A stretch of DNA of 15,041 nucleotides from a virus (Duplodnaviria; Heunggongvirae; Uroviricota; Caudoviricetes): positions 1-15,041 of the IMG/VR virus record IMGVR_UViG_2579778989_000004, one strand, 5' to 3'. The translations under genes were made by a program, and so were the position numbers. Of the stretch, positions 1 through 15,041 are shown piece by piece. The notes under the pieces were generated by a model. The model was given only the letters and a program-made list of their open reading frames with translations. It did not search any database and had not been told where the DNA came from. Numbering within the stretch: the stretch's first letter is position 1; each line of letters starts with the position of its first letter.

Positions 1-672
1 AAACCCTCGCCCGGCGGCGACACTCCATCGGGGCCGTCTGATGGTGACACATCCGTTCGTACAGTCTCCCTGCTGCCGACAGCCGGAGAGGCTGCTGCGC
101 AGGGCTGGACCATCACCGGCGGCAGTGTTGCGCTGGAAGATGGTGTGTTTAAGGTTACCAAGCAGAGCAATAAAACTTGGTCCCTGATGCATCCGGTGGA
201 TGACGCAGTCTCCCTGCTGACACGGGGTGGCAGACTGAGCTGTAAGTTTCGACTGTCAGGCGCACTGACCAACAACCAGTTCGGTCTGGGAATTTATCTG
301 TATACCGATGTAGCGTTACCTGACGTCGTGGCGATGACCGGGACTGGTAACCCGTTCCTGATGTCGTTCTTCACCCAGACCACAGACGGCAAACTGAATC
401 TGATGCATCACAGGAAAGCAGGAAACACAAAGTTGGGCGAGTTCGGGAATTACAGTAACGACTGGCAGACGCTGGAGCTGGTGTTCACCGCCGGCAGTGC
501 CACGGTTACTCCGAAACTGAATGGAGTGGCTGGCCCGGCATTCCAGGTCATAAAAGACAGTCTGACACTGGGGCTGAATGCGCTGACGCTGACGGATATT
601 ACCAAAAATGCAGCGTATGGCGTTGAGATAGAAAGTCTGGTGCTGGAGATAAATGCACCAGCATCATCATAA
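1..672 (+). CDS. Partial CDS, 5' end outside the window (frame 1 is open from base 1; first ATG at 145). C-terminal ~223 residues of an unidentified protein, possibly a carbohydrate-binding domain of a larger enzyme. It sits in the moron position just upstream of the holin.
   Basis: Frame 1 has no stop from position 1 to the TAA at 670-672. The translation is not low-complexity. The first ~40 residues are Gly/Pro/Ser/Asp-rich and linker-like. It is not Q-like. Identity not recognised. Confidence 0.55.
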   Translation, partial: KPSPGGDTPSGPSDGDTSVRTVSLLPTAGEAAAQGWTITGGSVALEDGVFKVTKQSNKTWSLMHPVDDAVSLLTRGGRLSCKFRLSGALTNNQFGLGIYLYTDVALPDVVAMTGTGNPFLMSFFTQTTDGKLNLMHHRKAGNTKLGEFGNYSNDWQTLELVFTAGSATVTPKLNGVAGPAFQVIKDSLTLGLNALTLTDITKNAAYGVEIESLVLEINAPASS

Positions 673-757
673 AAAGTGAGCCAGTCAAATGGAAGGTATC
701 GTTAAACTCACCGGTAGTGTCAGTGGGTCGTCTGAGATGCCTGCATGAGTTATCAGA

Positions 758-788
758 GCCATCAGTACTTAACTGGTGGCTTTTTTTA
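758..788 (+). terminator. Rho-independent terminator-like hairpin between the upstream ORF and the holin gene.
   Basis: GCCATCAG (758-765), loop TACTTAA, CTGGTGGC (773-780) gives an 8-bp stem with one G-U pair, followed by TTTTTTT (781-787). Confidence 0.5.
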
Positions 789-822
789 TTGTTGTCAGCT
801 TCCGGATAACGGGAGACGGGGT

Positions 823-1038
823 ATGTACCAGATGGAAAAAATCACAACAGGTGTGTCATACACCACGTCAGCGGTGGGAACGGGCTACTGGTTCCTGCAG
901 TTGCTGGACAGGGTTTCCCCGTCTCAGTGGGCGGCAATAGGCGTGCTGGGGAGTCTGCTGTTTGGGCTGCTGACATATCTGACGAACCTGTATTTCAAAA
1001 TCAGAGAGGACCGTCGTAAGGCTGCACGGGGAGAGTAA
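823..1038 (+). CDS. S: Class II holin (pinholin) of the phage 21 S21 / E. coli EssD-EssQ family, 71 aa.
   Basis: The translation [71 protein letters not shown] matches the S21/EssD pinholin family from memory, with two TM segments and a charged C-terminus. GGAG-like RBS at 811-815. The longer track ORF from 745 is rejected as an upstream extension. Confidence 0.9.
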
Positions 1039-1042
1039 TTCA

Positions 1043-1357
1043 ATGACTCAAAACTATGAACTGATTGTGAAAGGGATCCGCAATTTTGAGAATAAAGTTA
1101 CGGTAACTTTAGCGTTACGGGACAAAAAACGCTTTGACGGTGAAATTTTTGACCTGGACATCTCGCTGGACCGTGTTGAAGGTGCCGCGCTGGAGTTTTA
1201 TGAGGCAGCAGCCAGAAGGAGCATCAGACAGGTCTTCATGGATGTTGCTGCCGGGTTATGTGAAGGGGACGAGCTGTTGCCAGAAACGCGCCCCTGTTCA
1301 GAGGCGCGGTATACCATAAAAATTAACAGTTCTGATAACTCGATTACGGGTTGTTAG
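1043..1357 (+). CDS. ydfR: Small protein of unknown function (104 aa) between holin and endolysin. Resembles YdfR (DUF1327) of the E. coli Qin prophage lysis region.
   Basis: Complete ORF with ATG 4 nt after the holin stop. The N-terminus MTQNYELIVKGIRNFENKVTVT...FDGEIFDLD...VEGAALEFYEAAARRS matches my recollection of YdfR. The holin, ydfR, lysozyme order is that of Qin. Confidence 0.6.
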   Translation: MTQNYELIVKGIRNFENKVTVTLALRDKKRFDGEIFDLDISLDRVEGAALEFYEAAARRSIRQVFMDVAAGLCEGDELLPETRPCSEARYTIKINSSDNSITGC

Positions 1358-1412
1358 CTTTTTGCAGTTGGCTTTCCAGTATCTTTCATTGGTAGCATCC
1401 TGATAAATATCC

Positions 1413-1946
1413 ATGAGCGCAAAAATCAAATACGGCCTGTCAGCTGCTGTTCTGGCGCTGATTGCTGCAGGCGCGTCTGCTCCTCAAATACTTGACCAGT
1501 TTCTGGATGAAAAAGAGGGTAACCACACTACGGCATACCGCGATGGTTCCGGTATATGGACCATCTGTCGTGGTGCCACAATGGTGGATGGTAAGCCCGT
1601 CATACCGGGAATGAAGCTGTCGAAGGAAAAATGCGACCAGGTTAACGCTATTGAACGTGATAAGGCGCTGGCATGGGTGGAGCGCAATATTAAAGTACCA
1701 CTGACCGAACCACAGAAAGCGGGTATAGCGTCATTCTGTCCCTATAACATTGGCCCCGGTAAGTGTTTCCCGTCGACGTTTTATAAGCGGCTGAATGCCG
1801 GTGATCGTAAGGGCGCATGCGAGGCGATTCGCTGGTGGATAAAAGATGGTGGGCGCGATTGCCGCATACGTTCAAATAACTGCTATGGACAGGTTATTCG
1901 TCGTGACCAGGAAAGCGCATTAGCCTGTTGGGGGATAGATCAGTGA
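1413..1946 (+). CDS. R: SAR endolysin, a GH24 lysozyme (phage 21 R21 / RrrD-RrrQ type), 177 aa.
   Basis: N-terminal weakly hydrophobic Gly/Ala-rich segment ([15 protein letters not shown]) typical of a signal-anchor-release domain. The E...D...T catalytic pattern ([16 protein letters not shown]) and C-terminal CWG motif match T4-lysozyme-like SAR endolysins. Follows a pinholin. Confidence 0.9.
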
Positions 1947-2401
1947 GCAGAGTCGCAGCGATTATTTATACTCTGGTTATCTGCACCATCGTCTGCCTGT
2001 CATGGGCTGTTAATCATTACCGCGATAACGCCATTACCTACAAAGCCCAGCGCGACAAAAATGCCAGAGAACTGAAGCTGGCGAACGTGGTAATTACTGA
2101 CATGCAGATGCGTCAGCGTGATGTAGCAGATCTCGACGCCAGATACACAAAGGAGCTTGCTGATGCTAACGCGACTATCGAAAGTCTTCGTGCTGATGTT
2201 TCTGCTGGGCGTAAGCGCCTGCAAGTCGCCGCCACCTGTGCAAAGTCAACGACCGGAGCCAGCAGCATGGGCGATGGAGAAAGCCCAAGACTTACAGCAG
2301 ATGCTGAACTCAATTATTACCGTCTCCGAAGTGGAATCGACAAGATAACCGCTCAGGTCAACTACCTGCAGGAGTACATCAGGACGCAGTGCTTAAAATA
2401 A
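1943..2401 (+). CDS. Rz: Rz inner-membrane spanin (i-spanin). The start is GTG at 1943, overlapping the endolysin TGA stop.
   Basis: The translation [62 protein letters not shown]... is near-identical to lambda Rz as I recall it. The GTG start is chosen over the track's TTG at 1928 by alignment to the lambda Rz N-terminus. Confidence 0.85.
2157..2348 (+). CDS. Rz1: Rz1 outer-membrane lipoprotein spanin (o-spanin), embedded in the +1 frame of Rz.
   Basis: 63-aa ORF lying wholly within Rz in a different frame. Signal peptide with lipobox LLGVSAC followed by a proline-rich segment ([13 protein letters not shown]), as in lambda Rz1. Confidence 0.75.
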
Positions 2402-2438
2402 TTTTAATTTCACTGAAATTTAATACGTGACTTTCAGG

Positions 2439-2469
2439 AAAATGCCTCGCAGATGCGGGGCATTTTTGT
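2439..2469. terminator. Strong intrinsic terminator after the lysis cassette, potentially bidirectional.
   Basis: AAAATGCCTCGC, loop AGAT, GCGGGGCATTTTTGT: a ~12-bp GC-rich stem with one G-U pair, an A-tract upstream and a T-tract downstream. Confidence 0.55.
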
Positions 2470-2760
2470 ACAGGTATTTCACCGCGCACCGCAGCGCACT
2501 CAACCACGTCGAACCAAACCCTTTGGAATGAGCCTTTGAGTAGTCAGTTAGTGCTGGTGAGCCTTGACGGGCTGATCTCCTATGCAGCAAAGGTTCATCT
2601 CAAAGTAAGACGAACGCTATGACAAACCAAGATTCTATAGACCTATCTGATCTTCGTGGAATGGTCAGTTTTCCAGACAAAAGGTAATCACCATAGTCGT
2701 ATGGCTATGAATCTTGTTGCTGCAGATAAGCATTTTGTGATTGAAGTGGTCAAATCTCTC

Positions 2761-2789
2761 AAATGCAGTAAAATGCAGTGCGCTATAAT
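2761..2789 (+). promoter_or_regulatory. Putative sigma70 promoter for the 206-aa gene, with a tandem 10-bp repeat in the -35/spacer region.
   Basis: Consensus -10 TATAAT at 2784-2789, 28 nt upstream of a strong AAGGAG SD (2807-2812) and the ATG at 2818. AAATGCAGTA and AAATGCAGTG are direct tandem repeats at 2761-2780. No convincing -35 hexamer was found. Confidence 0.35.
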
Positions 2790-2817
2790 TCAATAACGGA
2801 GGGAGTAAGGAGAAGTC

Positions 2818-3438
2818 ATGAAAGATCAAGATGTTAGGTTCGCGGTGCATCATAAGCTTTTGAAAGAATCGCATTTAGATCCAGACTGCCTTGTGGTCGA
2901 TGAATTTTCCATATCCCTTGGCGCCAGTAGAGCAGACATTGCTGTAATAAATGGTGTTATACACGGGTACGAGCTCAAAAGTGAATATGACTCTTTGGAG
3001 CGTTTGCCTCTTCAAATCAAGCATTATTCTTCTGTAATGGACAAGGTTACTCTTGTCGTAGCTGAGAAACACCTTGAGGGAGCATTAAAGTTAATCCCAG
3101 GTTGGTGGGGCGTTAAAACGGTTTCTGTTGGGCCAAAAGGCGCCATTCTTATAAAGCACATGCGTGGAGAAAAGCTTAATCGAAACCATGACACATTGAT
3201 GCTCGCTCAATTGCTTTGGAAAGATGAATGTATCGACGTACTTGAACGATGGGGCTATTCCAAAGGAATCAAAAGCAAGCCCCGATTTGAGTTATGGAAT
3301 ATTATTGCGGAAAATATTCCAATAGCGAATCTCAGGCCTGAAGTCAGAACAGCCTTAAAGAAACGCGTAGGCTGGAAAGTTAAGGCTTGGCAGGCTGAGT
3401 CTGCGCCAACCAATAAAGCTGTCTCACGACTAACGTAA
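2818..3438 (+). CDS. Hypothetical protein (206 aa) with an N-terminal PD-(D/E)xK-like nuclease motif. AT-rich accessory gene.
   Basis: Complete ORF with SD AAGGAG at 5-nt spacing. Residues D28-E29, D40 (RADIAVING) and E52-L-K54 (HGYELKSE) fit the hhhD-x(n)-hhExK pattern on predicted beta strands. GC content is visibly lower than in the flanking phage genes. Confidence 0.7.
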   Translation: MKDQDVRFAVHHKLLKESHLDPDCLVVDEFSISLGASRADIAVINGVIHGYELKSEYDSLERLPLQIKHYSSVMDKVTLVVAEKHLEGALKLIPGWWGVKTVSVGPKGAILIKHMRGEKLNRNHDTLMLAQLLWKDECIDVLERWGYSKGIKSKPRFELWNIIAENIPIANLRPEVRTALKKRVGWKVKAWQAESAPTNKAVSRLT

Positions 3439-4447
3439 TATGGTGCGTATGTGCAACTTTACGCCATTCTTTAGAGCCGCCAGATTTGTTAGCGCCTAAT
3501 GATCTTTGGTAAATGTAATCATCCCCCCAACTAAATTTGGAGCCAAAGACTTGATACTCTGGCGAACTAACAAGGGTAGTACATAAGTTTTTAGTTTGGC
3601 CCCATCCATTTCCTTTAACTGCGGTACCTTTTACAAAGATCCATGAGGTATCGTTCGAATATCTCACTGAGACATACTGAGACATGAAGCGTGGGTCTAC
3701 GCTCGTAATGGTAGAGCTAGCGGTGGGATAATCACTAAAACTTGGCGTTCTTCCATTGCTAAAATTCTGTACTACGTACATCCAAAGATCGTATTCATGG
3801 CGCGGAATATGATGAACTTGATGTTGCGGTATCCCTGCCTGTGATGCCGGGTATGCGGTTGAAGATAAAATCAAGTTTCTCCACGGAGCTTGGCCTGATA
3901 ATGTGTTGACCATGCTTAATGCTTGTTGTTTTAAACTATCAGTTGCGTTTTGAATATCTCCAAAATCAATGATTACATCAATTAAACTAGGATGAATATT
4001 TAAGTGGTTAACCAGACTTGTGAATTGGTGCCATGTCTGGGGGGTGATAGACATAGCGAGCCCATTGATTAAGTTGCGTTGAACAGCATGTATATAGTTT
4101 GTTGAATATGCGGGAGAAACAACAGGGATAATTTCCTTACCATTTACTCTAGCATCTTGGATACACATATCTAGAGGATGATGGCGGCTCGAACCATGTT
4201 TATCTAAATATTTAACATCCAGCAAAACAGGACGATTGGCTTTCCAGGATGCCGCAAGGTTAATACCGAAGTCAGATAAGTAAGAACTCAAACTCTTCTT
4301 GTAGCATTCGTTTTCATAATCCCAGTCTATGTCTGGAATGGTAATGATCGGAGTAAAACCAGAGAGCGTAGTTTGATCTAAAAGCATCAGAGATTCATAT
4401 TCAGCAGGCTTCCATTTCAGCTGTGGATAATATTGATGTTGACTCAT
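3380..4447 (-). CDS. Hypothetical protein (355 aa), family not recognised. Convergent with the 206-aa gene and overlapping its 3' end by ~59 bp.
   Basis: Long minus-strand ORF in AT-rich DNA, where spurious long ORFs are unlikely. ATG at 4447-4445 with SD AAGGAG (complement of 4453-4458) at 5-nt spacing. No Walker A or other motif I can assign. Confidence 0.7.
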   Translation of the reverse strand: MSQHQYYPQLKWKPAEYESLMLLDQTTLSGFTPIITIPDIDWDYENECYKKSLSSYLSDFGINLAASWKANRPVLLDVKYLDKHGSSRHHPLDMCIQDARVNGKEIIPVVSPAYSTNYIHAVQRNLINGLAMSITPQTWHQFTSLVNHLNIHPSLIDVIIDFGDIQNATDSLKQQALSMVNTLSGQAPWRNLILSSTAYPASQAGIPQHQVHHIPRHEYDLWMYVVQNFSNGRTPSFSDYPTASSTITSVDPRFMSQYVSVRYSNDTSWIFVKGTAVKGNGWGQTKNLCTTLVSSPEYQVFGSKFSWGDDYIYQRSLGANKSGGSKEWRKVAHTHHITLVVRQLYWLAQTQPAKP

Positions 4448-4639
4448 TAAAACTCCTTAAAATCTTTACTTATCCTAAGTATAGTGTTATGGCGTAACGC
4501 CAATTGTTTTTATACACTTGAAAACATTGGGAAAAGTTGAGCTATATCTAAATTTACAAAATTGGATGTTATAGAAATCGAGGTTTCAACTAGGCATGGA
4601 ACTGCAAAATTTTTAATGCCTGCACGCGAAAGTCGTTGG

Positions 4640-4850
4640 CGGGTCCTTTCCGGTGATCCAGATCGTTACGGGGCGGCGACCTCGCGGGTTTTCGCTATTT
4701 ATGAAAATTTTTAGGGAAAAATCAGATCCGTTCTTCTTCTTTTTAACTGATTGATTATCAATAGAATTTTAAAAATATAAAAGGATCTGACAAAGGCTGT
4801 TTTTGTTAGAAAACGCCATTTTCAGATCCTTTCTGGTTCCCGGGGGAGTG
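4640..4850. other. cos: cos site (cosQ, cosN, cosB) of a lambda-type packaging system. The 12-nt cohesive-end sequence GGGCGGCGACCT is at 4671-4682.
   Basis: GTCGTTGGCGGGTCCTTTCCGGTGATCC...GTTACGGGGCGGCGACCTCGCGGGTTTTCGCTATTTATGAAAATTTT matches the lambda right-end/left-end junction as I recall it. It lies immediately upstream of a Nu1 homologue. Downstream cosB-like repeats are described in findings. Confidence 0.85.
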
Positions 4851-4851
4851 T

Positions 4852-5400
4852 ATGAACGTCAATAAGAAAAAACTGGCCGATATTTTTGGCGTTGATGTCA
4901 GGACCATCACCGCCTGGCAGAGTCAGGGGTTACCACTAGTTTCTGGTGGAGGGAAAGGGACTGAATCAGTTTTTGATACAACTGCTGCCATTCAGTGGTA
5001 TGCGCAGAGGGAAGCTGATATTGAAAACGAAAAACTCCGTAAAGAGATCGAGGATTTGAGGGCTGCCAGCGAATCAGACCTTCAGCCCGGCACCATTGAT
5101 TACGAACGTTACCGACTGACGAAGGCACAGGCCGATGCACAGGAGCTGAAAAATGCTCGTGAGGAAGGCCTTGTCCTCGAGACGGAGTTATTTACCTACA
5201 TCTTTCAGCGAGTGGCACAGAATATATCAGGGATCCTTGTCCGTGTCCCTCAGACACTGCAGCGTAAATACCCTGATATATCACCCGTACATCTTGATGC
5301 TGTGAAAACTGAAATCGCGAAAGCATCCGATGTGGCTTCTGAAGCCGGTGAGAATGTGCGCAGGTGGATTGATGATTTCAGACGAACTGAGGGCGGCTAA
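4852..5400 (+). CDS. nu1: Terminase small subunit (lambda gpNu1 homologue), 182 aa.
   Basis: [29 protein letters not shown]...[58 protein letters not shown] is closely similar to lambda Nu1 (N-terminal winged-HTH region) from memory. Confidence 0.95.
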
Positions 5401-7300
5401 TTCTGCAGGAGCGATAGCAACCGGCCTCCTTGCGCTAAAAATTCCTGTCCCTCTGACGACAGTTCAGTGGGCAGATCGACATTATTACCTTCCGAAAGAG
5501 TCATCTTACACCCCGGGGCGGTGGGAAACACTGCCGTTTCAGGTTGCCATCATGAACAGCATGGGGAATGACCGGATCCGCACTGTTAATCTGATTAAAT
5601 CTGCCCGTGTTGGTTATACAAAGATGTTGCTGGGAGTGGAGGCTTATTTTATTGAGCATAAATCACGCAACAGCCTTCTTTTCCAGCCCACGGATTCTGC
5701 TGCTGAAGATTTTATGAAATCTCATGTGGAACCCACGATCAGGGATGTGCCGGTTTTACTCGATCTTGCACCGTGGTTTGGGCGTAAACATCGTGATAAT
5801 ACCCTCACGCTGAAACGTTTTTCATCGGGCGTGGGCTTCTGGTGCCTGGGCGGGGCTGCCGCTAAAAACTACCGTGAAAAATCCGTGGACGTGGTCTGCT
5901 ATGACGAACTTTCCTCGTTCGAACCGGATGTCGAAAAAGAGGGTTCGCCAACCCTGCTTGGGGATAAACGTATTGAGGGCTCTGTATGGCCCAAATCCAT
6001 TCGCGGCTCGACGCCTAAAATCAAAGGCACCTGCCAGATCGAAAAAGCGGCCAACGAGTCGGCGCATTTCATGCGTTTTTATGTGCCCTGCCCACACTGT
6101 GGGGAGGAGCAGTATCTGAAATTTGGCGATGAATCCACGCCTTTTGGCCTTAAATGGGAGAAGGACAGCCCCGAAAGCGTTTTCTACCTCTGTGAACATC
6201 ATGGCTGCGTGATCCATCAGTCTGAGCTTGACCAGAGCAACGGGCGGTGGATCTGTGAAAACACGGGGATGTGGACCCGTGACGGTCTGACGTTTTTCAG
6301 CGCCGCGGATAATGAAATTCCGCCGCCGCGCTCCATCACGTTCCATATCTGGACGGCGTACAGTCCGTTCACCACCTGGGTACAGATAGTCTATGACTGG
6401 CTGGATGCACTGAAAGATCCCAACGGCCTGAAAACCTTTGTGAACACCACGCTGGGCGAGACCTGGGAAGAGGCCGTGGGCGAAAAACTCGATCACCAGG
6501 TACTGATGGATAAGGTTGTTCATTACACGGCGGCGGTGCCTGCCCGGGTGGTTTATCTGACGGCGGGCATTGACTCGCAGCGAAACCGTTTTGAGATGTA
6601 TGTCTGGGGATGGGCTCCGGGAGAGGAAGCCTTTCTGGTGGATAAAATCATCATTATGGGACGTCCCGATGAGGAAGAGACGCTGTTACGTGTGGATGCG
6701 GCGATCAACAAAAAATACCGCCATGCGGATGGCACCGAAATGACCATTTCCCGTGTCTGCTGGGACACCGGGGGGATCGATGGTGAAATCGTCTACCAGA
6801 GGTCAAAAAAACACGGTGTTTTCCGTGTGCTGCCGGTAAAAGGCGCATCTGTCTATGGCAAGCCGGTGATCACCATGCCGAAAACCCGCAATCAGCGGGG
6901 CGTGTATCTGTGTGAAGTGGGGACGGACACCGCAAAAGAAATTCTCTATGCCCGTATGAAAGCCGATCCCACGTCTGCGGATGAAGCCACGTCGTATGCC
7001 ATCCGTTTTCCTGATGATCCGGAGATTTTTTCGCAGACAGAGGCGCAGCAACTGGTCGCGGAAGAGCTTGTGGAGAAGTGGGAAAAAGGAAAGATGCGTC
7101 TGCTGTGGGATAACAAAAAGCGGCGTAACGAAGCGCTGGACTGCCTGGTGTATGCCTATGCGGCATTACGTGTGTCCGTGCAACGCTGGCAGCTTGATCT
7201 GGCTGTACTGGCAAAATCCCGGGAAGAAGAGACGACCCGGCCAACCCTTAAAGAACTGGCAGCGAAGCTGTCCGGAGGAGTGAATGGTTACAGTCGCTGA
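5372..7300 (+). CDS. A: Terminase large subunit (lambda gpA homologue), ~642 aa.
   Basis: Strong similarity to lambda gpA throughout (e.g. [60 protein letters not shown]). The ATG at 5372 is preceded by AGGTGGA and gives an N-terminal length matching lambda A. The track's longer start at 5330 lies inside Nu1. Confidence 0.95.
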
Positions 7301-7490
7301 ACTGCAGGCGCTGCGTCAGGCGCGCCTTGATTTATTAACCGGTAAACGGGTGGTGTCTGTCCAGAAAGATGGTCGCAGAATTGAATATACGGCAGCTTCT
7401 CTGGATGAGCTTAACCGGGCGATCAATGATGCGGAGTCGGTACTGGGGACAACCCGCCGTCGCCGTCGTCCGCTGGGAGTGAGGTTATGA
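7284..7490 (+). CDS. W: Head completion / head-tail joining protein (lambda gpW homologue), 68 aa.
   Basis: Same length as lambda W, with conserved LTGKRVVSVQKDGRRIEYTAAS and a C-terminal RRRRP motif. Start overlaps the end of A. Confidence 0.9.
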   Translation: MVTVAELQALRQARLDLLTGKRVVSVQKDGRRIEYTAASLDELNRAINDAESVLGTTRRRRRPLGVRL

Positions 7491-9079
7491 AACGAACGCC
7501 TGTCCTGATTGATGTGAACGGCGTTCCGCTTCGGGAGAGTCTCAGCTACAACGGGGGCGGCGCAGGATTTGGCGGGCAAATGGCGGAGTGGTTGCCACCG
7601 GCGCAGAGTGCCGATGCGGCCCTGCTACCCGCGTTGCGTCTGGGGAATGCCCGTGCAGATGATCTGGTGCGCAATAACGGAATAGCGGCTAATGCGGTGG
7701 CCCTGCATAAGGATCACATTGTCGGGCATATGTTTCTGATCAGCTACCGTCCGAACTGGCGCTGGCTGGGGATGCGGGAGACCGCAGCAAAAAGTTTTGT
7801 CGATGAGGTGGAGGCGGCCTGGTCGGAATACGCAGAAGGGATGTTTGGTGAGATCGACGTGGAAGGGAAACGCACGTTCACGGAATTTATCCGTGAAGGT
7901 GTGGGCGTTCATGCGTTTAACGGCGAAATCTTTGTGCAGCCGGTCTGGGATACGGAAACCACGCAGTTGTTCCGTACGCGTTTTAAAGCCGTGAGTCCGA
8001 AACGGGTGGACACGCCTGGACACGGTATGGGGAACCGTTTTCTGCGGGCCGGTGTGGAGGTTGATCGATATGGCCGTGCCGTTGCGTACCATATCTGTGA
8101 GGATGATTTTCCTTTCTCTGGTAGTGGACGATGGGAACGGATCCCGCGTGAACTACCCACCGGGCGTCCGGCCATGCTGCATATTTTCGAGCCGGTGGAG
8201 GACGGGCAGACCCGTGGGGCTAATCAGTTTTACAGCGTCATGGAACGGCTGAAGATGCTCGATTCCCTGCAGGCAACACAGCTTCAGTCGGCCATAGTGA
8301 AGGCGATGTATGCAGCGACGATTGAAAGTGACCTTGATACCGAAAAGGCCTTTGAATATATCGCCGGTGCGCCGCAGGGGCAGAAGGATAATCCGCTTAT
8401 TAATATTCTGGATAAGTTCTCCACCTGGTATGACACGAATCACGTGACGCTGGGCGGTGTCAAAATTCCGCACCTTTTCCCCGGTGATGATCTGAAACTT
8501 CAGACCGCGCAGGATTCAGACAATGGATTTTCGGCGCTTGAACAGGCGCTGCTGCGGTATATCGCCGCCGGTCTTGGCGTTTCCTACGAACAGTTGTCCC
8601 GTGATTACTCGAAGGTCAGTTACTCAAGTGCCCGCGCATCCGCCAATGAGTCGTGGCGCTATTTTATGGGGCGGCGAAAATTTATTGCGTCCCGGCTGGC
8701 CACGCAGATGTTTTCCTGCTGGCTGGAAGAGGCACTTCTTCGGGGGATTATTCGTCCGCCACGGGCACGTTTTGATTTTTATCAGGCGCGATCAGCCTGG
8801 TCACGGGCTGAGTGGATTGGAGCCGGAAGAATGGCCATTGACGGGCTCAAGGAGGTTCAGGAATCAGTGATGCGCATTGAGGCCGGACTGAGCACGTATG
8901 AGAAAGAGCTGGCGCTGATGGGCGAGGATTATCAGGACATTTTCCGCCAGCAGGTCAGGGAATCTGCAGAGCGGGAAAAAGCCGGACTCTCACGTCCGGT
9001 GTGGATAGCGCAGGCGTATCAGCAGCAGATAGCGGAGAGTCGCAGGCCGGAAGAGGAGACAACACCACGTGAGACGTAA
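7487..9079 (+). CDS. B: Portal protein (lambda gpB homologue), 530 aa.
   Basis: Long conserved blocks recalled from lambda gpB (NARADDLVRNNG, FEPVEDGQTRGAN, QSAIVKAMYAATIES, LLRYIAAGLGVSYEQLSR, RMAIDGLKEVQE). ATGA start/stop overlap with W. Confidence 0.95.
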   Translation: MKRTPVLIDVNGVPLRESLSYNGGGAGFGGQMAEWLPPAQSADAALLPALRLGNARADDLVRNNGIAANAVALHKDHIVGHMFLISYRPNWRWLGMRETAAKSFVDEVEAAWSEYAEGMFGEIDVEGKRTFTEFIREGVGVHAFNGEIFVQPVWDTETTQLFRTRFKAVSPKRVDTPGHGMGNRFLRAGVEVDRYGRAVAYHICEDDFPFSGSGRWERIPRELPTGRPAMLHIFEPVEDGQTRGANQFYSVMERLKMLDSLQATQLQSAIVKAMYAATIESDLDTEKAFEYIAGAPQGQKDNPLINILDKFSTWYDTNHVTLGGVKIPHLFPGDDLKLQTAQDSDNGFSALEQALLRYIAAGLGVSYEQLSRDYSKVSYSSARASANESWRYFMGRRKFIASRLATQMFSCWLEEALLRGIIRPPRARFDFYQARSAWSRAEWIGAGRMAIDGLKEVQESVMRIEAGLSTYEKELALMGEDYQDIFRQQVRESAEREKAGLSRPVWIAQAYQQQIAESRRPEEETTPRET

Positions 9080-10574
9080 TCTTTCACACATTATTGCCGC
9101 AGCATTCAATGAACCGCTGCTTCTGGAGCCCGCCTATGCGCGGGTTTTCTTTTGCGCGCTCGGGCGCGAGATGGGGGCAGCAAGTCTTTCGGTACCGCAA
9201 CAGCAGGTACAGCTTGATGCTCCCGGAATGCTGGCTGAAACGGACGAGTACATGGCCGGAGGTAAACGACCGGCCCGTGTTTACCGGGTGGTGAACGGTA
9301 TTGCGGTACTGCCGGTGAGCGGCACGCTGGTGCACCGGCTGGGGGGGATGCGGCCATTTTCCGGAATGACTGGCTATGACGGCATTGTCGCCTGTCTTCA
9401 GCAGGCAATGGCAGATAGCCAGGTGCGGGGCATACTGCTGGACATTGACAGTCCGGGCGGGCAGGCCGCCGGCGCGTTTGACTGCGCTGACATGATTTAC
9501 CGCCTCCGTCAGCAGAAGCCGGTCTGGGCACTGTGCAATGACACGGCCTGTTCTGCAGCCATGCTGCTGGCGTCGGCCTGCTCCCGACGGCTGGTTACCC
9601 AGACATCCCGTATCGGCTCCATTGGCGTGATGATGAGCCATGTCAGCTATGCCGGTCATCTGGCGCAGGCCGGTGTGGATATCACGCTGATTTATGCCGG
9701 GGCGCACAAGGTGGATGGCAATCAGTTTGAAGCGTTGCCGGCAGAGGTTCGCCAGGATATGCAGCAGCGGATTGATGCGGCGCACCGGATGTTTGCCGAA
9801 AAAGTGGCGATGTATACCGGGTTGTCTGTGGATGCGGTCACGGGAACAGAGGCCGCCGTTTTTGAAGGTCAGTCCGGCATTGAGGCCGGGCTGGCGGATG
9901 AATTAATCAATGCGTCGGATGCCATCAGTGTGATGGCCACGGCGCTGAACAGTAATGTCAGAGGAGGCACTATGCCGCAATTAACTGCAACGGAAGCCGC
10001 CGTGCAGGAGAACCAGCGAGTGATGGGGATCCTGACATGCCAGGAAGCGAAAGGACGTGAACAGCTTGCCACGATGCTGGCAGGGCAACAGGGCATGAGC
10101 GTTGAACAGGCCCGGGCGATTCTGGCCGCGGCGGCACCGCAGCAGCCGGTGGCATCCGCGCAGAGTGAAGCCGATCGCATTATGGCGTGTGAAGAAGCGA
10201 ACGGTCGTGAACAACTGGCAGCAACGCTGGCGGCGATGCCGGAGATGACGGTGGAAAAAGCCCGCCCGATCCTGGCGGCTGCACCACTGGCGGATGCCGG
10301 GCCCTCACTTCGTGATCAGATCATGGCCCTGGATGAGGCAAAAGGGGCAGAAGCGCAGGCTGAAAAACTGGCGGCCTGCCCGGGAATGACCGTGGAGAAC
10401 GCCCGGGCTGTGCTGGCTGCGGGATCAGGTAAGGCCGAACCGGTCTCTGCATCCACAGCCGCCATGTTTGAACATTTCATGGCGAACCATTCACCGGCAG
10501 CGGTCCAGGGGGGCGTGTCACAGGCGTCAGAAGACGGTGATGCGGACGTGAAAATGCTCATGGCCATGCCATGA
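9069..10574 (+). CDS. C: Prohead protease / minor capsid protein C (lambda gpC homologue, S49/ClpP-like) with a C-terminal scaffold region, 501 aa.
   Basis: The N-terminal two-thirds is protease-like (VLPVSGTLVHR, GILLDIDSPGG, SAAMLLASAC). The C-terminal third is Ala/Glu/Gln-rich with three internal repeats. Start overlaps the end of B. Confidence 0.9.
   Translation: MRRNLSHIIAAAFNEPLLLEPAYARVFFCALGREMGAASLSVPQQQVQLDAPGMLAETDEYMAGGKRPARVYRVVNGIAVLPVSGTLVHRLGGMRPFSGMTGYDGIVACLQQAMADSQVRGILLDIDSPGGQAAGAFDCADMIYRLRQQKPVWALCNDTACSAAMLLASACSRRLVTQTSRIGSIGVMMSHVSYAGHLAQAGVDITLIYAGAHKVDGNQFEALPAEVRQDMQQRIDAAHRMFAEKVAMYTGLSVDAVTGTEAAVFEGQSGIEAGLADELINASDAISVMATALNSNVRGGTMPQLTATEAAVQENQRVMGILTCQEAKGREQLATMLAGQQGMSVEQARAILAAAAPQQPVASAQSEADRIMACEEANGREQLAATLAAMPEMTVEKARPILAAAPLADAGPSLRDQIMALDEAKGAEAQAEKLAACPGMTVENARAVLAAGSGKAEPVSASTAAMFEHFMANHSPAAVQGGVSQASEDGDADVKMLMAMP
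9972..10574 (+). CDS. nu3: Nested in-frame scaffold protein (lambda Nu3-like), translated from an internal start within C.
   Basis: In-frame ATG at 9972 preceded by a strong internal SD GAGGAGG (9961-9967) at 4-nt spacing. Lambda expresses Nu3 the same way, from the 3' part of C. Confidence 0.6.
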   Translation: MPQLTATEAAVQENQRVMGILTCQEAKGREQLATMLAGQQGMSVEQARAILAAAAPQQPVASAQSEADRIMACEEANGREQLAATLAAMPEMTVEKARPILAAAPLADAGPSLRDQIMALDEAKGAEAQAEKLAACPGMTVENARAVLAAGSGKAEPVSASTAAMFEHFMANHSPAAVQGGVSQASEDGDADVKMLMAMP

Positions 10575-10610
10575 AGTCAGTGCTGACCATCAATATGAGG
10601 TTTTAACAAA

Positions 10611-10958
10611 ATGGTGACGAAAACCATCACTGAACAGCGTGCGGAAGTACGTATTTTTGCCGGTAATGATCCGGCTCATACCGCCACAGGCAGCAGCGGG
10701 ATTTCTTCTGCAACACCGGCTCTGACGCCCCTGATGCTGGATGAAGCCACCGGGAAACTGGTGGTCTGGGACGGACAGAAAGCCGGTAGTGCGGTTGGCA
10801 TACTGGTACTGCCGCTTGAAGGCACAGAGACGGTGCTGACCTATTACAAATCGGGGACCTTTGCGACGGAGGCAATCCGCTGGCCTGACAGTGTGGATGA
10901 ACACAAAAAGGCAAATGCCTTTGCCGGCACAGCCCTGAGTCACGCGGCGCTGCCGTAA
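10611..10958 (+). CDS. D: Head decoration protein (lambda gpD homologue), 115 aa.
   Basis: DPAHTAT, TPLMLD, KLVVWDG, AVGIL, YKSGTF and AFAGTA match lambda gpD from memory. Confidence 0.9.
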   Translation: MVTKTITEQRAEVRIFAGNDPAHTATGSSGISSATPALTPLMLDEATGKLVVWDGQKAGSAVGILVLPLEGTETVLTYYKSGTFATEAIRWPDSVDEHKKANAFAGTALSHAALP

Positions 10959-11015
10959 CACGTTATCAGGCCACCGCGTTGACCTGACTGATTTCTTAAT
11001 GAAAGGAACTGATTT

Positions 11016-12044
11016 ATGGGATTGTTTACGACCCGCCAGTTGCTCGGTTATACCGAACAAAAAGTTAAATTTCGTGCGCTGTTTCTGGAACTGTTTTTCC
11101 GCCGTACGGTGAATTTCCACACCGAAGAGGTGATGCTGGACAAAATTACCGGAAAAACGCCGGTGGCGGCCTATGTCTCCCCGGTCGTTGAAGGAAAAGT
11201 GCTGCGTCATCGTGGGGGTGAAACCCGCGTGTTACGTCCGGGCTACGTCAAGCCGAAACACGAATTTAATTACCAGCAGGCGGTTGAACGCCTTCCCGGT
11301 GAAGATCCGGCTCAGCTGAACGACCCGGCCTACCGTCGTCTGCGTATCATCACTGATAACCTCAAACAGGAAGAGCACGCTATTGTGCAGGTGGAAGAAA
11401 TGCAGGCGGTGAATGCCGTGCTGTATGGCAAATATACGATGGAAGGAGACCAGTTCGAGAAAATTGAAGTCGATTTTGGCCGATCGACGAAGAATAACAT
11501 CATACAGGGTAGCGGTAAGGAGTGGTCAAAACAGGATCGTGACACGTTCGACCCGACATATGATATCGACCTTTTCTGTGATCAGGCCAGTGGTCTTGTG
11601 AATATTGCCATTATGGACGGTACCGTCTGGCGTCTGCTGAATGGCTTTAAGCTTTTCCGCGAAAAACTGGATACCCGTCGCGGTTCAAATTCACAACTCG
11701 AAACGGCAGTGAAAGATCTGGGCGCAGTGGTATCCTTCAAGGGGTATTACGGCGATCTGGCCATTGTGGTAGCGAAAACGTCTTATGTGGCAGAGGACGG
11801 TACCGAAAAACGTTATCTGCCGGAGGGCACGCTGGTGCTGGGGAATACGGCAGCAGAGGGGATTCGTTGCTATGGAGCCATTAAGGATGCACAGGCGTTG
11901 TCCGAAGGAGTGGTGGCTTCTTCCCGTTACCCGAAACACTGGTTGACCGTGGGCGATCCGTCCTGTGAATTCACCATGACGCAGTCCGCGCCGCTGATGG
12001 TGCTGCCGGATCCGGATGAGTTTGTGGTGGTGCAGGTGAAATAA
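11016..12044 (+). CDS. E: Major capsid protein (lambda gpE homologue), 342 aa.
   Basis: Extensive similarity to lambda gpE (PGYVKPKHE, DPAYRRLRII, VEEMQAVNAVLYGKYTM, KLDTRRGSNS, LETAVKDLG, TMTQSAPLMVLPDPDEFV). RBS AAGGA upstream. Confidence 0.95.
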   Translation: MGLFTTRQLLGYTEQKVKFRALFLELFFRRTVNFHTEEVMLDKITGKTPVAAYVSPVVEGKVLRHRGGETRVLRPGYVKPKHEFNYQQAVERLPGEDPAQLNDPAYRRLRIITDNLKQEEHAIVQVEEMQAVNAVLYGKYTMEGDQFEKIEVDFGRSTKNNIIQGSGKEWSKQDRDTFDPTYDIDLFCDQASGLVNIAIMDGTVWRLLNGFKLFREKLDTRRGSNSQLETAVKDLGAVVSFKGYYGDLAIVVAKTSYVAEDGTEKRYLPEGTLVLGNTAAEGIRCYGAIKDAQALSEGVVASSRYPKHWLTVGDPSCEFTMTQSAPLMVLPDPDEFVVVQVK

Positions 12045-12052
12045 TCCGTGAG

Positions 12053-12080
12053 CGGGGGCGAAATGCCCCCGTGTTTTTTT
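12053..12080 (+). terminator. Intrinsic terminator-like hairpin immediately downstream of the major capsid gene.
   Basis: CGGGGGC (12053-12059), loop GAAAT, GCCCCCG (12065-12071): a perfect 7-bp GC stem followed by TGTTTTTTT (12072-12080). Confidence 0.5.
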
Positions 12081-12095
12081 CACAGGGAGCTGGAT

Positions 12096-12464
12096 ATGGC
12101 AACAAAAGAAGAAAATCAGAAACGTCTTCGTGAACTGGCTGGTCTGCTGGGGCGCGAGGCGGATATGTCGGGGAGTGCTGCGGATATCGCACAGCGTGTG
12201 GCAGAGTGGGAAGAGGAGGTTTGCGCCTCGAAAAATGAAATCGCAGATGTTGATGATACCGTTCATGAGCAGGCATGCAGGCACACCGGTGAGGATGACG
12301 TTGGTATTCTGGAACGTATCAGGCTTCTGAAGTGTTTTTACCTGTGCGGTGTTGACGATGAAACAGGTGAGCCTGTTGAGCATGTTGATGCTGGCAGAGT
12401 AATTCTGATGCCCCCCTCAGTGGCAAAAGACATGGTCAGGAGCGGAATGGCCGTTTATGCATGA
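12096..12464 (+). CDS. FI: DNA packaging / head assembly protein (lambda gpFI homologue), ~122 aa.
   Basis: Position between E and FII. The start is set at ATG 12096 with SD GGGAG (12085-12089), so the gene follows the terminator hairpin; the track's longer start at 12048 would overlap it. Acidic protein, as FI. Direct sequence similarity is only moderate. Confidence 0.7.
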   Translation: MATKEENQKRLRELAGLLGREADMSGSAADIAQRVAEWEEEVCASKNEIADVDDTVHEQACRHTGEDDVGILERIRLLKCFYLCGVDDETGEPVEHVDAGRVILMPPSVAKDMVRSGMAVYA

Positions 12465-12810
12465 TTTTGAGAATTCCTTTGATGCTGCCCTTGCCGGGGT
12501 GGACAGAACGATTGTTGAAGTGATGGGGCTCTGTGCGCAGTTCACCTCGGGGGCACAGTGTGGCAGCGAAGTTCAGGGGGTTTTTGACGATCCGGAGTCG
12601 CTGGGGTTTGCCGGTAGCGGGGTCCGTATTGAAGGAAGCAGCCCGTCATTATTTGTGCGGATGGATACGGTTCGTGCCGTGCGGCGTGGTGACACGCTGA
12701 CCATTAATGGTGAGACATTCTGGGTGGATCGTGTTTCTCCGGATGACGGGGGCAGCTGTTATCTCTGGCTCAACCGTGGGCAACCACCCGCAGTTAACCG
12801 GCGACGATAA
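12457..12810 (+). CDS. FII: Head-tail connector protein (lambda gpFII homologue), 117 aa.
   Basis: Same length as lambda FII, with conserved GVFDDPE, VRIEGSSPSLFVR, RRGDTLTI and a C-terminal FWVDRVSPDDGGSCYLWL...PPAVNRRR. ATGA overlap with FI. Confidence 0.95.
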   Translation: MHDFENSFDAALAGVDRTIVEVMGLCAQFTSGAQCGSEVQGVFDDPESLGFAGSGVRIEGSSPSLFVRMDTVRAVRRGDTLTINGETFWVDRVSPDDGGSCYLWLNRGQPPAVNRRR

Positions 12811-12824
12811 ACGCAGGGTGAATT

Positions 12825-13484
12825 ATGGCGATAAAAGGGCTTGATCAGGCGATTGACAATCTGAGCCGGGTTCGTAAAAACGCCATTCCGGCTGCTTCTG
12901 CAATGACCATTAACCGCGTGGCCACAACGGCGATTAATCAGTCTTCGTCACAGGTTGCCCGGGAAACCAGGGTGAGACGGAAACTGGTAAAGGAACGGTC
13001 CAGACTGAAACGGGCGACGGTCAGAAATCCGAATGCCAGAATTATCGTTAACCGCGGTGATCTCCCTGTGATTAAGCTGGGGATCAGAATGCTGGGGCGT
13101 CGTCCGAACAGCATACTCAAAGCCGGTCAGCATCGTTATCAGCGGGCATTTATCCAGCGATTAAATAATGGGCGCTGGCATGTTATGCAACGTCTTCCCC
13201 AGGCCAGATATGAGGAGGGCAATGACGACAAGGGAAGGAAAAAGCGTAATCGCCTTCCCATTCAGGTGGTGAAAATCCCGATGGCGGCCCCACTGAAACA
13301 GGCATTTGATGAGAATGTTGACCGTATCCGGCGTGAACGCCTGCCTAAAGAACTGGCAACTGAAGACGCAGACGTTATATCTGGTGAAAAACGTCTGCGT
13401 CTTAACTACAACGGCATAATTGCATTGTTAGTCGAGGGCTTTAAAACACTTCGTCATGAGATTAAAGAACTCCGGGAGAAGTAA
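12825..13484 (+). CDS. Z: Tail assembly protein Z homologue (lambda gpZ) with a divergent, longer C-terminus; possibly a chimeric 3' end.
   Basis: The N-terminus MAIKGL(D/E)QA..NLSR...AMTINRVA...SQVARET.VRRKLVKER.RLKRATV.NP.ARI.VNRGDLPVIKLG and the segment AFIQ.L.NGRWHVMQR...VVKIPMA.PL...RIRRERLPKEL match lambda Z. The last ~42 residues (ATEDADVISGEKRLRLNYNGIIALLVEGFKTLRHEIKELREK) do not. Confidence 0.85.
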   Translation: MAIKGLDQAIDNLSRVRKNAIPAASAMTINRVATTAINQSSSQVARETRVRRKLVKERSRLKRATVRNPNARIIVNRGDLPVIKLGIRMLGRRPNSILKAGQHRYQRAFIQRLNNGRWHVMQRLPQARYEEGNDDKGRKKRNRLPIQVVKIPMAAPLKQAFDENVDRIRRERLPKELATEDADVISGEKRLRLNYNGIIALLVEGFKTLRHEIKELREK

Positions 13485-13569
13485 ACGACAGCTGTTGTAG
13501 TTTCTGGTTTCTACTGAATTTAAATTGTGGGGTGACACTCACCCCACGCATTCAGAAGGGGGAGATGAG

Positions 13570-13893
13570 ATGGGGGTAACATCGGGATGGGTAGGCTCTT
13601 CGGCTAAGAGCGAAACAGGTGAGCAGTGGATGGGAGCCGCCGGAACCAAACTGGGACTGAGTAAACCTTTTATGATGAGCCAAATGGTTGGGCGAACTAT
13701 GGGCTGTAAAATTGCAACTGAGTACTATAAATGGAAATCCTCTGACAAGGTTGATAACTGGGGCGCAGTTGGCGCTGACTGGCCTTTAGAAGAAAAAAGT
13801 AAAGGTACAATTACAAACGCCGCAAGCTGCGGATCAGGGAGGCTGGTAGGGGCTGTCGTTACACTTTCTCACTTTTTGACGAACTCTACGTAA
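13570..13893 (+). CDS. Small Gly/Trp-rich hypothetical protein (~107 aa from ATG 13570). Its stop codon lies in the first bases of the IS66-family terminus, so the gene may be truncated.
   Basis: ORF with SD-like AAGGGGGAG upstream of ATG 13570 (the track's TTG start is at 13525). The TAA at 13891-13893 is part of the GTAAGCG at 13890-13896. No recognisable family. Confidence 0.4.
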   Translation: MGVTSGWVGSSAKSETGEQWMGAAGTKLGLSKPFMMSQMVGRTMGCKIATEYYKWKSSDKVDNWGAVGADWPLEEKSKGTITNAASCGSGRLVGAVVTLSHFLTNST

Positions 13894-15041
13894 GCGACTC
13901 GTCAGAACCGTATTGATATTTACTGAGAGCTCAGATCAACTTTCCAGGGCAACAGATCGCGTACCCGGTTTGCCGGCCAGTCCTGGATATGTTCAATGAC
14001 GTAACGCAGCCACTTTTCTGGCTCCACATTGTTCAGACGGCATGTGCCGATCAGCGAGTACAACACCGCCGCATGTTCACCACCGCTGTCGGAACCCGCG
14101 AACATCCAGTTTTTCCGGCCTACGGCCACTCCCCGTAAGGCGTTCTCTGCGATGTTGTTGTCGATTTCCACCCAGCCATTACTGCAGTACACGTTCAGTG
14201 CATCCCACTGTTTCAGCAGGTATGCGAACGCTTTTGCCGTATCTGAGTGACGCGACAGTGTTTTCATCTGTTGCTGTATCCAGTCATACAGTGACTGCAT
14301 CAGTGGCGCGGCTCTGGCTTTTCTTGCCGCCAGACGCTGTTCTGCTGAACAGCCCCGGACCTCTGCCTCGATGGCATACAGTTCACCGATACGCTGCAGG
14401 GCTTCCGTGGTGATGTAGGTGGGCGCTCTTGCATGCACATCGTGGATTTTTCTCCGGGCATGAGCCATACACGCGGCTTCCGTTATTCTGCCGGATTCGT
14501 ATAACGCCCGGTAACCACCGTAAGCATCGGCCTGAAGCACACCGCTGTAACCGGCCAGGTGATTTTGTGGATGGATACCTTTCCGGTCCGGACTGTACGC
14601 GAACCAGACCGCCGGGGGCATCTGTGAACCGGCGTTACGGTCATCACGGACGTAGACCCACAGCCGGGCTGTCCGGGTTTTACCGCTGCCCGGCTCCTGG
14701 ACCGGGACGGGGATATCATCAGCATGGACTTTACCGGGCATCAGCACATACTGGCGCAGGACGTCATACAGCGGCTCCAGCAGTTCAGCAACAGCACCTG
14801 TCCAGCGCCCCAGTGTGGCACGGCTCAGCTCCACTCCCTGACGACGGTATATTTCTGACTGGCGGTATAACGGCAGATGGTCTGCATATTTCCCGGTGAC
14901 AACATGGGCCAGAAGCCCCGCTCCGGCATAACTGCGTGCAATGGGTTTTGAAGGTACTGGTGCCTGCACGATATGGTCGCACCGGCAACAGGCCTGTTTC
15001 GGACGTTGTGTTTCGATAACCTTAAAGGCGCTGCTGATAAG
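13890..15041 (-). mobile_element. IS66-family insertion sequence, partial (extends beyond the window end), inverted relative to the phage genes.
   Basis: GTAAGCG at 13890-13896 is typical of IS66-family terminal inverted repeats. It lies 30 bp outside the stop of a minus-strand IS66-type transposase gene. Confidence 0.7.
13920..15041 (-). CDS. tnpC: IS66-family transposase (TnpC-type), C-terminal ~374 codons; the N-terminus is outside the window.
   Basis: The minus-strand frame stays open past the track's GTG start at 14969 through to base 15041. The translation (…[28 protein letters not shown]…, …[36 protein letters not shown]…) is characteristic of IS66 TnpC. Cys-rich CCRC segment upstream. 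Confidence 0.85.

Follow-up and report, generated by a model that had tools for sequence, protein, structure and literature searches.

Rac, DLP12 and Qin are the classic examples of defective lambdoid prophages in E. coli; IS insertions and internal deletions have cost them blocks of morphogenesis genes. Among such prophages, internal deletions of large size are a common finding. In the JKHS016 prophage, for example, the portal gene is joined directly to a tail-tip gene, and the same stf-gp38 fibre module as in the DNA described here follows. In lambda, heads and tails are assembled separately and join spontaneously. Elements that encode capsid and packaging functions and have no tail genes are described as well: the cf-PICIs (EcCIEDL933) are islands of ~15 kb with int, alpA and rep, they form small capsids, and their packaging module differs in organisation from those of helper phages and shows low protein identity to them (bioRxiv 10.1101/2022.09.08.507074).

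The locus analysed here (the window) is a whole contig of 15,041 bp from E. coli 2-011-08_S3, which starts inside a late gene and stops inside an IS. It is very probably a defective lambda-like prophage of a gut E. coli in progressive decay. Positions 1-13358 are colinear with the intact lambda-like prophages of E7476, 55989 and AST198 (98.1-98.5% DNA identity); in the comparison with the annotated E7476 prophage the window coordinate equals the L001 coordinate minus 17000. Like these prophages, which are located at the ompW/Rac locus, the window carries the DUF6645 gene, the lysis genes, a sce7726/beta gene pair, cos and the genes from Nu1 to Z (features listed in the table below). In the intact relatives a full Z of 191 aa is followed by the genes U to J, by lom, by a stf of 3.1 kb and by tfa, whereas in the window a different fibre end of the stf-gp38 type follows Z. 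Compared to Rac, DLP12, Qin and JKHS016, the window has its tail block precisely removed and the whole head and packaging block kept, with endpoints that are specific for this lineage. The DUF6645 gene is 1857 bp long in the 55989 prophage, and the window begins 1185 bp into it. The two-gene moron between Rz and cos, with matches to the PADLOC profiles cll (4e-31), PD-Lambda-2_C (5e-32) and beta (4e-10), is defence-like; the same sce7726/beta pair is present in the intact relatives E7476 and 55989.

Features of the 15,041-bp window, with strand and basis of each assignment.
Feature	Position	Strand	Basis
DUF6645 late-region gene, 3' part, cut by contig start	1..672	+	Pfam DUF6645
Lysis cassette	823..2401	+	colinear at 98.5% with annotated E7476 prophage; ORFs
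Class II holin	823-1038	+	
YdfR-family gene	1043-1357	+	
Lysozyme	1413-1946	+	
Rz-type lysis protein	1943-2401	+	
Two-gene moron between Rz and cos	2818..4447		
sce7726/cII-like gene (moron)	2818-3438	+	same pair in E7476 and 55989
Beta_protein gene (moron)	3380-4447	-	Pfam Beta_protein 8e-56
cosN, 12-nt lambda cohesive end GGGCGGCGACCT	4671-4682	+	exact match; lambda-cos-like flanks
Lambda-type packaging/head block	4852..12810	+	Pfam family per gene
Nu1	4852-5400	+	Pfam Phage_Nu1
A	5372-7300	+	Pfam GpA_ATPase/GpA_nuclease
W	7284-7490	+	Pfam gpW
B	7487-9079	+	Pfam Phage_portal_2
C (S49 protease/scaffold)	9069-10574	+	Pfam Peptidase_S49
D	10611-10958	+	Pfam HDPD
E	11016-12044	+	Pfam Phage_cap_E
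FI	12096-12464	+	Pfam Packaging_FI
FII	12457-12810	+	Pfam Phage_attach
Z-derived part of fusion ORF, gpZ residues 1-178/191	12825..13357	+	Pfam Minor_tail_Z
Deletion junction, imperfect 9-bp microhomology GAACTGG(C/T)A common to Z and stf	13350..13358	+	three-way comparison
stf-derived end, last 41 codons and stop of 520-aa collagen-like side tail fibre	13359..13484	+	100% identical to L014-L019
gp38-type tail-fibre adhesin gene, truncated	13570..13893	+	Pfam Gp38_N (PF21721) 4e-20
ISCro1 (IS66 family), one end only	13890..15041	-	99.7-99.8% identity to annotated ISCro1 copies over 1.15 kb

The genes Nu1, A, W, B, C, D, E, FI and FII are arranged in lambda order and every ORF is full length. 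An earlier note on this DNA, made from the letters alone, had called the head and packaging set complete. Pfam families were found for all genes and the ORF lengths equal those of the intact relatives; the exception is FI, with 369 instead of 384 bp, a 15-bp in-frame difference. That all ten head and packaging ORFs have their full length fits a recent deletion and would also be expected if the heads are still used. CosN is located 170 bp upstream of Nu1, and with cos, terminase, capsid set and lysis genes retained, heads might still fill upon induction. Since tails and fibres are lacking, the element alone would yield no infectious particles.

The genes U, V, G, T, H, M, L, K, I, J and lom are absent from this contig, which ends inside the IS; the note had listed U through J as missing. 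In the lambda-type prophage OkiPb01712 the order is Z to J, lom, stf, gp38 and prophage end, and in JKHS016 and cM8a the stf-gp38 module is likewise the last one before the chromosome. As the relatives have no further prophage module between this one and attR, the DNA past the IS would not be expected to carry tail genes.

Where Z ends, the sequence changes partner at base resolution. Homology to Z of the intact prophages stops at 13358, with the final 159 bp of the Z part 100% identical to E7476 Z, and homology to the stf 3' end and gp38 starts at 13350. The C at 13357 derives from Z, and this position (C/T) is the sole mismatch to contigs with an undeleted stf. Both halves of the fusion were identified by DNA identities of 99.8-100%. 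The deletion endpoints are Z codon 178 and stf codon 479, which are joined in frame to an ORF of 219 aa; the last 13 residues of the 191-aa gpZ are thereby replaced by 41 foreign residues. The Minor_tail_Z match (PF06763) comprises residues 3-180 against profile positions 1-179 of 190 (E = 6e-46). These data confirm the proposal of the note that Z has a foreign 3' end with a junction near 13357, and that a deletion had fused Z, close to its 3' end, with the terminal part of a distal fibre gene. The ~42 foreign residues it had reported are indeed the C-terminus of a fibre protein (100% DNA identity from 13358), and their number is 41. Their reading as a coiled coil did not hold: the residues are the end of the intramolecular chaperone domain (Peptidase_S74) of Stf and not a coiled coil of the mature fibre. 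This domain (PF13884) is found in the parental fibre (4e-13), with the motif IRSDKRNK. The fusion ORF gave no Pfam match to Peptidase_S74 and lacks an S74 domain with the autocleavage serine; all it retains is a stretch of 41 residues that follows the Pfam core. The 219-aa Z'-'Stf ORF would be a by-product rather than an adapted protein; by chance, one in three such joins is in frame.

The draft assembly behind the window is fragmented and the contig short, which could point to a Z-stf junction created by the assembler. Against such a chimera, the sequence shared by both partners is merely 7-9 bp long, far below the k-mer of any assembler, and the identical junction was obtained in independent assemblies with different software. 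Altogether the same chimeric Z was found in eight contigs, which come from three isolate assemblies, from another assembly at NCBI and from three ENA metagenomes built with different assemblers. An assembly artefact is thus hardly conceivable, and on the evidence of these assemblies the junction is genuine. Neither 5,426 complete E. coli genomes nor a phage collection of 50,697 records contained the junction, and Z homologues sharing the C-terminal extension, which the note had suggested to look for in intact phages, were found in neither set. A scan with the exact junction pattern gave 0 matches in GTDB representative genomes and 0 in JGI metagenomes.

The region downstream of the junction is the remainder of a fibre module. 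Window positions 13350-13889 are 99.4-99.8% identical to the module of several E. coli prophages and 90% identical to the fibre and Gp38 module of the Stx2 phages P13374 and phi191 and the Shigella phages Ss-VASD and 75/02 Stx. Of the complete module of collagen-like fibre and Gp38 adhesin, nothing is left in the window but the terminal 126 bp of the fibre gene and the initial 320 bp of gp38. Codons 1-106 of the 170 gp38 codons are retained (13570-13889), and the IS end completes the last codon and the TAA stop. Homology to the intact 513-bp gp38 stops at 13889, exactly where the ISCro1 terminal repeat GTAAGCG begins. The gp38 remnant lies in the 400 bp after Z and had been overlooked in the earlier note.

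The note had placed an IS66-family element ~400 bp past Z, which agrees well with the start of ISCro1 at 13890, 406 bp after the Z stop. The tnpC transposase gene is located on the minus strand and runs from beyond the contig end to 13920; matches to Pfam DDE_Tnp_IS66 and DDE_Tnp_IS66_C are present in the window, and the full 523-aa tnpC with the adjacent TnpB_IS66 is found in an identical sister contig (L004). The terminus at 13890, GTAAGCGACTCGTCAGAACCG, is the same as that of a complete ISCro1 copy (L012), which is flanked by an 8-bp target duplication (ATCTATCC). For the copy in the window, a target duplication AACTCTAC is expected; its other end is located outside the contig. The gp38::ISCro1 junction was not found in the 5,426 complete E. 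coli genomes or in the phage collection, and an exact-pattern scan for the predicted far-side IS/gp38 junction gave 0 matches in JGI metagenomes. A start of the IS at 13881-13882, with an overlap of 8-9 bp with gp38, as suggested by ISCro1 matches in other genomes, was rejected after two copies had been inspected, being due to chance or gapped extensions among ~15,600 coverage-ranked places. Compared with known ISCro1 copies, the one in the window has nothing notable.

The order of the two lesions can be read from metagenome contigs. Five of them (L014-L018) share 100% identity with the window from 13358 onward; they contain a full-length stf (520 aa) followed by the identical gp38::ISCro1 junction, and one of the five (L014) also includes J and lom. 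A sixth contig, L019, stops 2 nt into the IS; it is identical to the window as far as the final gp38 base and codes for the same truncated protein. As stf and gp38::ISCro1 occur together in undeleted form, the IS insertion preceded the deletion. A deletion adjacent to and mediated by the IS was considered as cause of the tail loss and rejected, because ISCro1 sits inside gp38, 530 bp away from the deletion junction, and because stf-gp38::IS exists undeleted.

The ancestor would have had the order lysis genes, cos, Nu1 to FII, Z, U to J, lom, stf and gp38, probably followed by the prophage end. ISCro1 first inserted into the gp38 adhesin gene past codon 106. In a second step, Z codon 178 was joined to the last 41 stf codons, probably by RecA-independent illegitimate recombination over a microhomology with 8 of 9 bp matching. 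Some 12-15 kb would thereby have been lost: ~92% of stf, lom, all genes from U to J and the 3' end of Z. A deletion within one prophage is the most economical reading of the junction and a probable one.

Alternatively, the junction might stem from illegitimate recombination between two resident lambdoid prophages, with Z from a lambda-type prophage and stf-gp38::ISCro1 from the other, accompanied by a chromosomal deletion or rearrangement. Several relatives point in this direction. The contig with J and lom (L014, carrying I, sodC, J, lom, stf and gp38::IS) finds its closest match (96-97%) in the tail region of cM8a, a prophage with HK97-type head genes and no Z. The closest relatives of the left arm, E7476 and 55989, have a different, longer stf plus tfa, and in NMBU-W12E19 the two halves of the junction are located in separate prophages. 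Lambdoid tail and fibre modules are notoriously mosaic, however, and a different head type elsewhere tells little about origin. Order and orientation in the window are exactly those of the single lambda-type prophage OkiPb01712, and a deletion spanning distant prophages would take much of the chromosome with it. Recombination between two prophages is therefore regarded as unlikely. None of the sequenced prophages has both the exact stf-gp38 module and a left arm that is 98% identical or more.

The retained genes raise the question whether the element still functions as a mobile element that packages its own DNA into its own capsids and obtains tails from a co-resident lambdoid phage, in function similar to a cf-PICI. 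Cos is exact, and the packaging, head, head-completion (W, FII) and lysis genes are all full length. The separate assembly of heads and tails, together with a median of 3 places per E. coli genome that match the window region, makes helpers plausible. In addition, the chimeric Z recurs in several gut samples, once on an E/FI/FII backbone that is ~10% diverged. The head module, on the other hand, is 98.5-100% identical to those of intact prophages, and its intactness thus reflects a recent deletion rather than selection. The deletion endpoints are intragenic and left a junk fusion and truncated ORFs behind, and an unrelated inactivating IS insertion came before the deletion, which is a signature of decay. 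Resemblance to cf-PICIs is restricted to the outline, capsid and packaging functions being encoded and tail genes absent. Unlike a cf-PICI, the window carries the usual head genes of lambda, which match those of complete prophages at 98.1-98.5% identity, and its deletion scars are fresh. None of the PICI core genes int, alpA and rep is located in the window; the left arm of the element, where int, xis, the regulatory and replication regions and Q would lie, is outside the contig. Taken together, a working element that supplies only heads is very unlikely. We give just as little credence to a prophage turning into a tail-stealing satellite that excises, replicates, packages itself into full-size capsids via its own cos, lyses the cell and borrows the tails of a helper. 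If such a reading were true, a phage could reach a cf-PICI-like lifestyle by simple deletion, and the recurrence of the junction across gut samples would indicate horizontal spread instead of clonal descent. The locus would bear on the origin of capsid-encoding satellites only if the element were transferable with helper tails.

Prophage decay at this locus is an ordinary case, with an IS first inserted in the tail-fibre adhesin gene and the tail genes deleted later. The note had given a decaying prophage as one of its two alternatives, and the two inactivating events in succession, the ISCro1 insertion in gp38 and the later Z-stf deletion, are in line with it. Its other alternative, heads completed by the tails of a co-resident lambdoid phage, finds no support in these data. 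Beyond annotation the locus is of little importance; it offers a cleanly resolved example of stepwise decay, in which the IS hit in the adhesin gene was followed by a probably microhomology-mediated loss of the whole tail block. For annotation, the database entries "minor tail Z family protein" (219 aa) and "Gp38 family protein" (107 aa) are best read as scars and not as new protein variants. The Z-stf junction, with the string CCTAAAGAACTGGCAACTGAAGACGCAG, could in turn mark the lineage of the host gut E. coli clone.

The window comprises all of contig JMGV01000005.1 (15,041 bp) of assembly GCA_000687065.1; its protein products are recorded in the databases as those of Escherichia coli 2-011-08_S3_C1/C3. 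The left end of the contig interrupts a late-region gene and the right end an insertion sequence; both are assembly breaks and not biological ends. Over positions 1-13358 the window is colinear with lambda-like prophages in complete E. coli genomes (98.5% identity to E7476, SCPM-O-B-12142 and AST198, 98.1% to 55989), and the annotation of the E7476 and 55989 prophages was transferred directly to the window coordinates. Pfam families agree gene by gene with this annotation, the lambda cohesive end has lambda-like flanks, and the ORFs have the lengths found in the intact relatives. The exception is FI (12096-12464), which has 369 bp versus 384 bp in E7476 and 55989, a 15-bp difference that is in frame. 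The complete head and packaging module, lysis genes and cos site described in the earlier note are thus borne out.

Features of the window and the evidence on which they are based
Feature	Position	Basis
DUF6645 gene, 3' part	to 672	colinear relatives
holin, YdfR-family gene, lysozyme, Rz	823-2401	colinear relatives
sce7726/Beta_protein pair, convergent	2818-4447	colinear relatives
lambda cohesive end, GGGCGGCGACCT	4671-4682	exact match
Nu1, A, W, B, C, D, E, FI, FII	4852-12810	colinear relatives, Pfam
Z	from 12825	colinear relatives, Pfam
gp38-type adhesin gene, truncated	13570-13889	Gp38_N (4e-20), homology to intact gp38
ISCro1	from 13890	terminal repeat

The Z homology stops at 13358, its last 159 bp being 100% identical to Z of E7476, and homology to a tail-fibre 3' end and the gp38 adhesin gene starts at 13350. 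The junction was resolved by a three-way comparison of the Z parent (...CCTAAAGAACTGGCA up to the breakpoint, TACGCG... beyond it), the side tail fibre (stf) parent (...TTGCCTGAACTGGTA and ACTGAAG..., respectively) and the window (...CCTAAAGAACTGGCAACTGAAG...). Both parents contain GAACTGG, followed by C (Z) or T (stf) and then A; base 13357 of the window is of the Z type, and the sequence is fibre-derived from 13359 on. Since GAA CTG is read as Glu-Leu in both parents, Z and stf are joined in frame. Intact Z has 191 aa and ends in ...PKELAYALKQQLRIAIKR; in the fusion, Z residues 1-178 are followed by TEDADVISGEKRLRLNYNGIIALLVEGFKTLRHEIKELREK (41 residues), and Minor_tail_Z is the only Pfam family detected. 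This comparison confirms and refines the initial proposal that a deletion had fused the 3' end of Z to that of a distal fibre gene.

The exact 219-aa fusion protein is encoded on eight contigs, which shows that the junction is real and carried by a circulating gut lineage. The carriers are three isolate assemblies, probably of a single sample (2-011-08_S3) to judge by the names of their deposited proteins, one further NCBI assembly and three ENA gut metagenomes. Among 5,426 complete E. coli genomes no place spanned the Z-stf junction, nor did any of the 31 matching records from 50,697 phage records, and scans for exact patterns in GTDB representative genomes and in JGI metagenomes gave no match. 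A gut metagenome contig (L008) carries the same fusion gene with one synonymous change at 13370, the chimeric Z being identical in protein. Its E/FI/FII backbone is approximately 10% diverged upstream of 12753 (L008 1-1062 corresponds to window 11769-12753); the deleted prophage may have recombined with a different lambdoid head module, or the contig may be a metagenome assembly chimera.

Read from a metagenome contig with an undeleted stf (L014), the parental fibre is a 520-aa protein. Between a lambda-Stf-like N-terminus and a C-terminal Peptidase_S74 domain, which is an intramolecular chaperone, it has a stretch rich in Ala, Ser and Glu and Gly-X-Y repeats of the collagen type. In endosialidase-type fibres, chaperone domains of this type are cleaved off after trimerisation. 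The piece joined to Z is therefore the tail of the chaperone domain and not a part of the mature fibre.

The earlier note had placed a gap of 400 bp between Z and the insertion sequence. The insertion sequence does follow, but the stretch holds the start of a gene for a gp38-type receptor-recognising adhesin. Homology to intact gp38 (513 bp) ends where GTAAGCGACTCGTCAGAACCG..., the terminal repeat of ISCro1, begins. A complete ISCro1 copy on plasmid p152 shares this terminus, closes on the other side with an imperfect inverted version of it and is flanked by an 8-bp target duplication; for the insertion in the window, the expected 8-bp duplication is AACTCTAC. Annotated ISCro1 copies share 99.7-99.8% identity with the IS part of the window, and an identical sister contig (L004) extends it to full tnpC (523 aa) and tnpB. 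The stop codon of the truncated gp38 (107 aa) is provided by the IS end (ACG TAA; ISCro1 terminus GTAAGCG; window 13882-13893), thus the 107-aa "Gp38 family protein" in databases is an insertion artefact. The gp38::ISCro1 allele was absent from the complete genomes searched.

Searching for the truncated gp38 by exact protein returned nine contigs. In five metagenome contigs (L014-L018), a full-length stf precedes this gp38::ISCro1 junction, and L014 additionally carries J and lom as well as a sodC moron. The identity of a Logan contig (L019) extends to 13889; this contig breaks off 2 nt into the IS, and its truncated gp38 product is likewise the 107-aa protein. From 13350 to the end of the overlap, L014-L019 differ from the window only by C/T at 13357, within the microhomology; from the junction onward the window is therefore 100% identical to the undeleted allele. 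The ISCro1 insertion came first and the Z-stf deletion later, in a sub-lineage. ISCro1 as the cause of the deletion was rejected, because the same gp38::IS allele exists undeleted.

Compared to E7476 or 55989, approximately 14.7 kb are missing: Z from codon 179 on, the genes U, V, G, T, H, M, L, K, I, J and lom, and stf except for its last 126 bp. With the 1.56-kb stf of the real parent, or on OkiPb01712 minus ISEc12, the deletion amounts to approximately 12.4 kb or somewhat more. OkiPb01712 has a lambda-type prophage ordered Z ... J, lom, stf, gp38, prophage end. In JKHS016, OkiPb01712 and cM8a, nothing but a DUF4376 remnant and chromosomal genes comes after the stf-gp38 module; tail genes are therefore not expected beyond the IS, inside which all contigs with the allele break.

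Ordinary prophage decay is the best-supported explanation. In this account the IS hit gp38, and a deletion between short imperfect direct repeats then joined Z to stf. E. coli deletions between repeats of a few bp are typical of RecA-independent slipped-strand or illegitimate recombination. A comparable scar is found in the JKHS016 prophage (L002 15360-17845), which has the same stf-gp38 module; here an independent deletion took most head and tail genes and fused the portal gene to the 3' part of the tail-tip gene J. An origin of Z and stf from two different resident prophages is improbable. In its favour, the nearest match to the L014 tail region comes from a prophage with HK97-type heads, and the closest relatives of the left arm have a different kind of fibre; against it, modules of lambdoid phages are mosaic, and order and orientation fit one prophage.

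The element retains the complete gene set for making and filling lambda heads. In lambda, heads and tails are assembled in separate pathways, and tails from a helper would come with their own Z. The lambda cryo-EM structure does not resolve gpZ, a tail-side component of the virion that mass spectrometry did detect (PMC10721106). We nevertheless consider it very unlikely that this is a functional element producing only heads and taking tails from a helper. Nothing indicates adaptation, the deletion endpoints lie inside genes and an unrelated inactivating lesion preceded the deletion; moreover, the head genes share 98.5-100% identity with their counterparts in intact prophages, so that their intactness reflects only the recency of the deletion. 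Among known elements, those that encode a capsid but take their tails from others are the capsid-forming PICIs, approximately 15-kb islands with int, alpA and rep, whose packaging module is organised unlike that of helper phages, has low protein identity to it and forms small capsids (10.1101/2022.09.08.507074). Such divergence from helper-phage modules was not found in the window. It is a new instance of a well-known kind, a defective lambdoid prophage, and its biology is ordinary.

The sodC moron (Cu/Zn superoxide dismutase) is seen in undeleted relatives having the fibre module of the window, on the opposite strand just upstream of J (L014 894-1421; L013 13681-14208). In E7476, the closest complete relative, an IS1A copy (L001 16190-16905) truncates the DUF6645 gene approximately 100 bp upstream of the equivalent of the contig start, and a repeat at this site may also lie behind the left end of the contig. 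Between Rz and cos, the window has a moron consisting of a sce7726/P4 cII-like gene and a convergent Beta_protein gene, a pair that the intact relatives E7476 and 55989 have as well. Its matches to the PADLOC models cll (4e-31), PD-Lambda-2_C (5e-32) and beta (4e-10) suggest that it is probably an anti-phage defence cassette.
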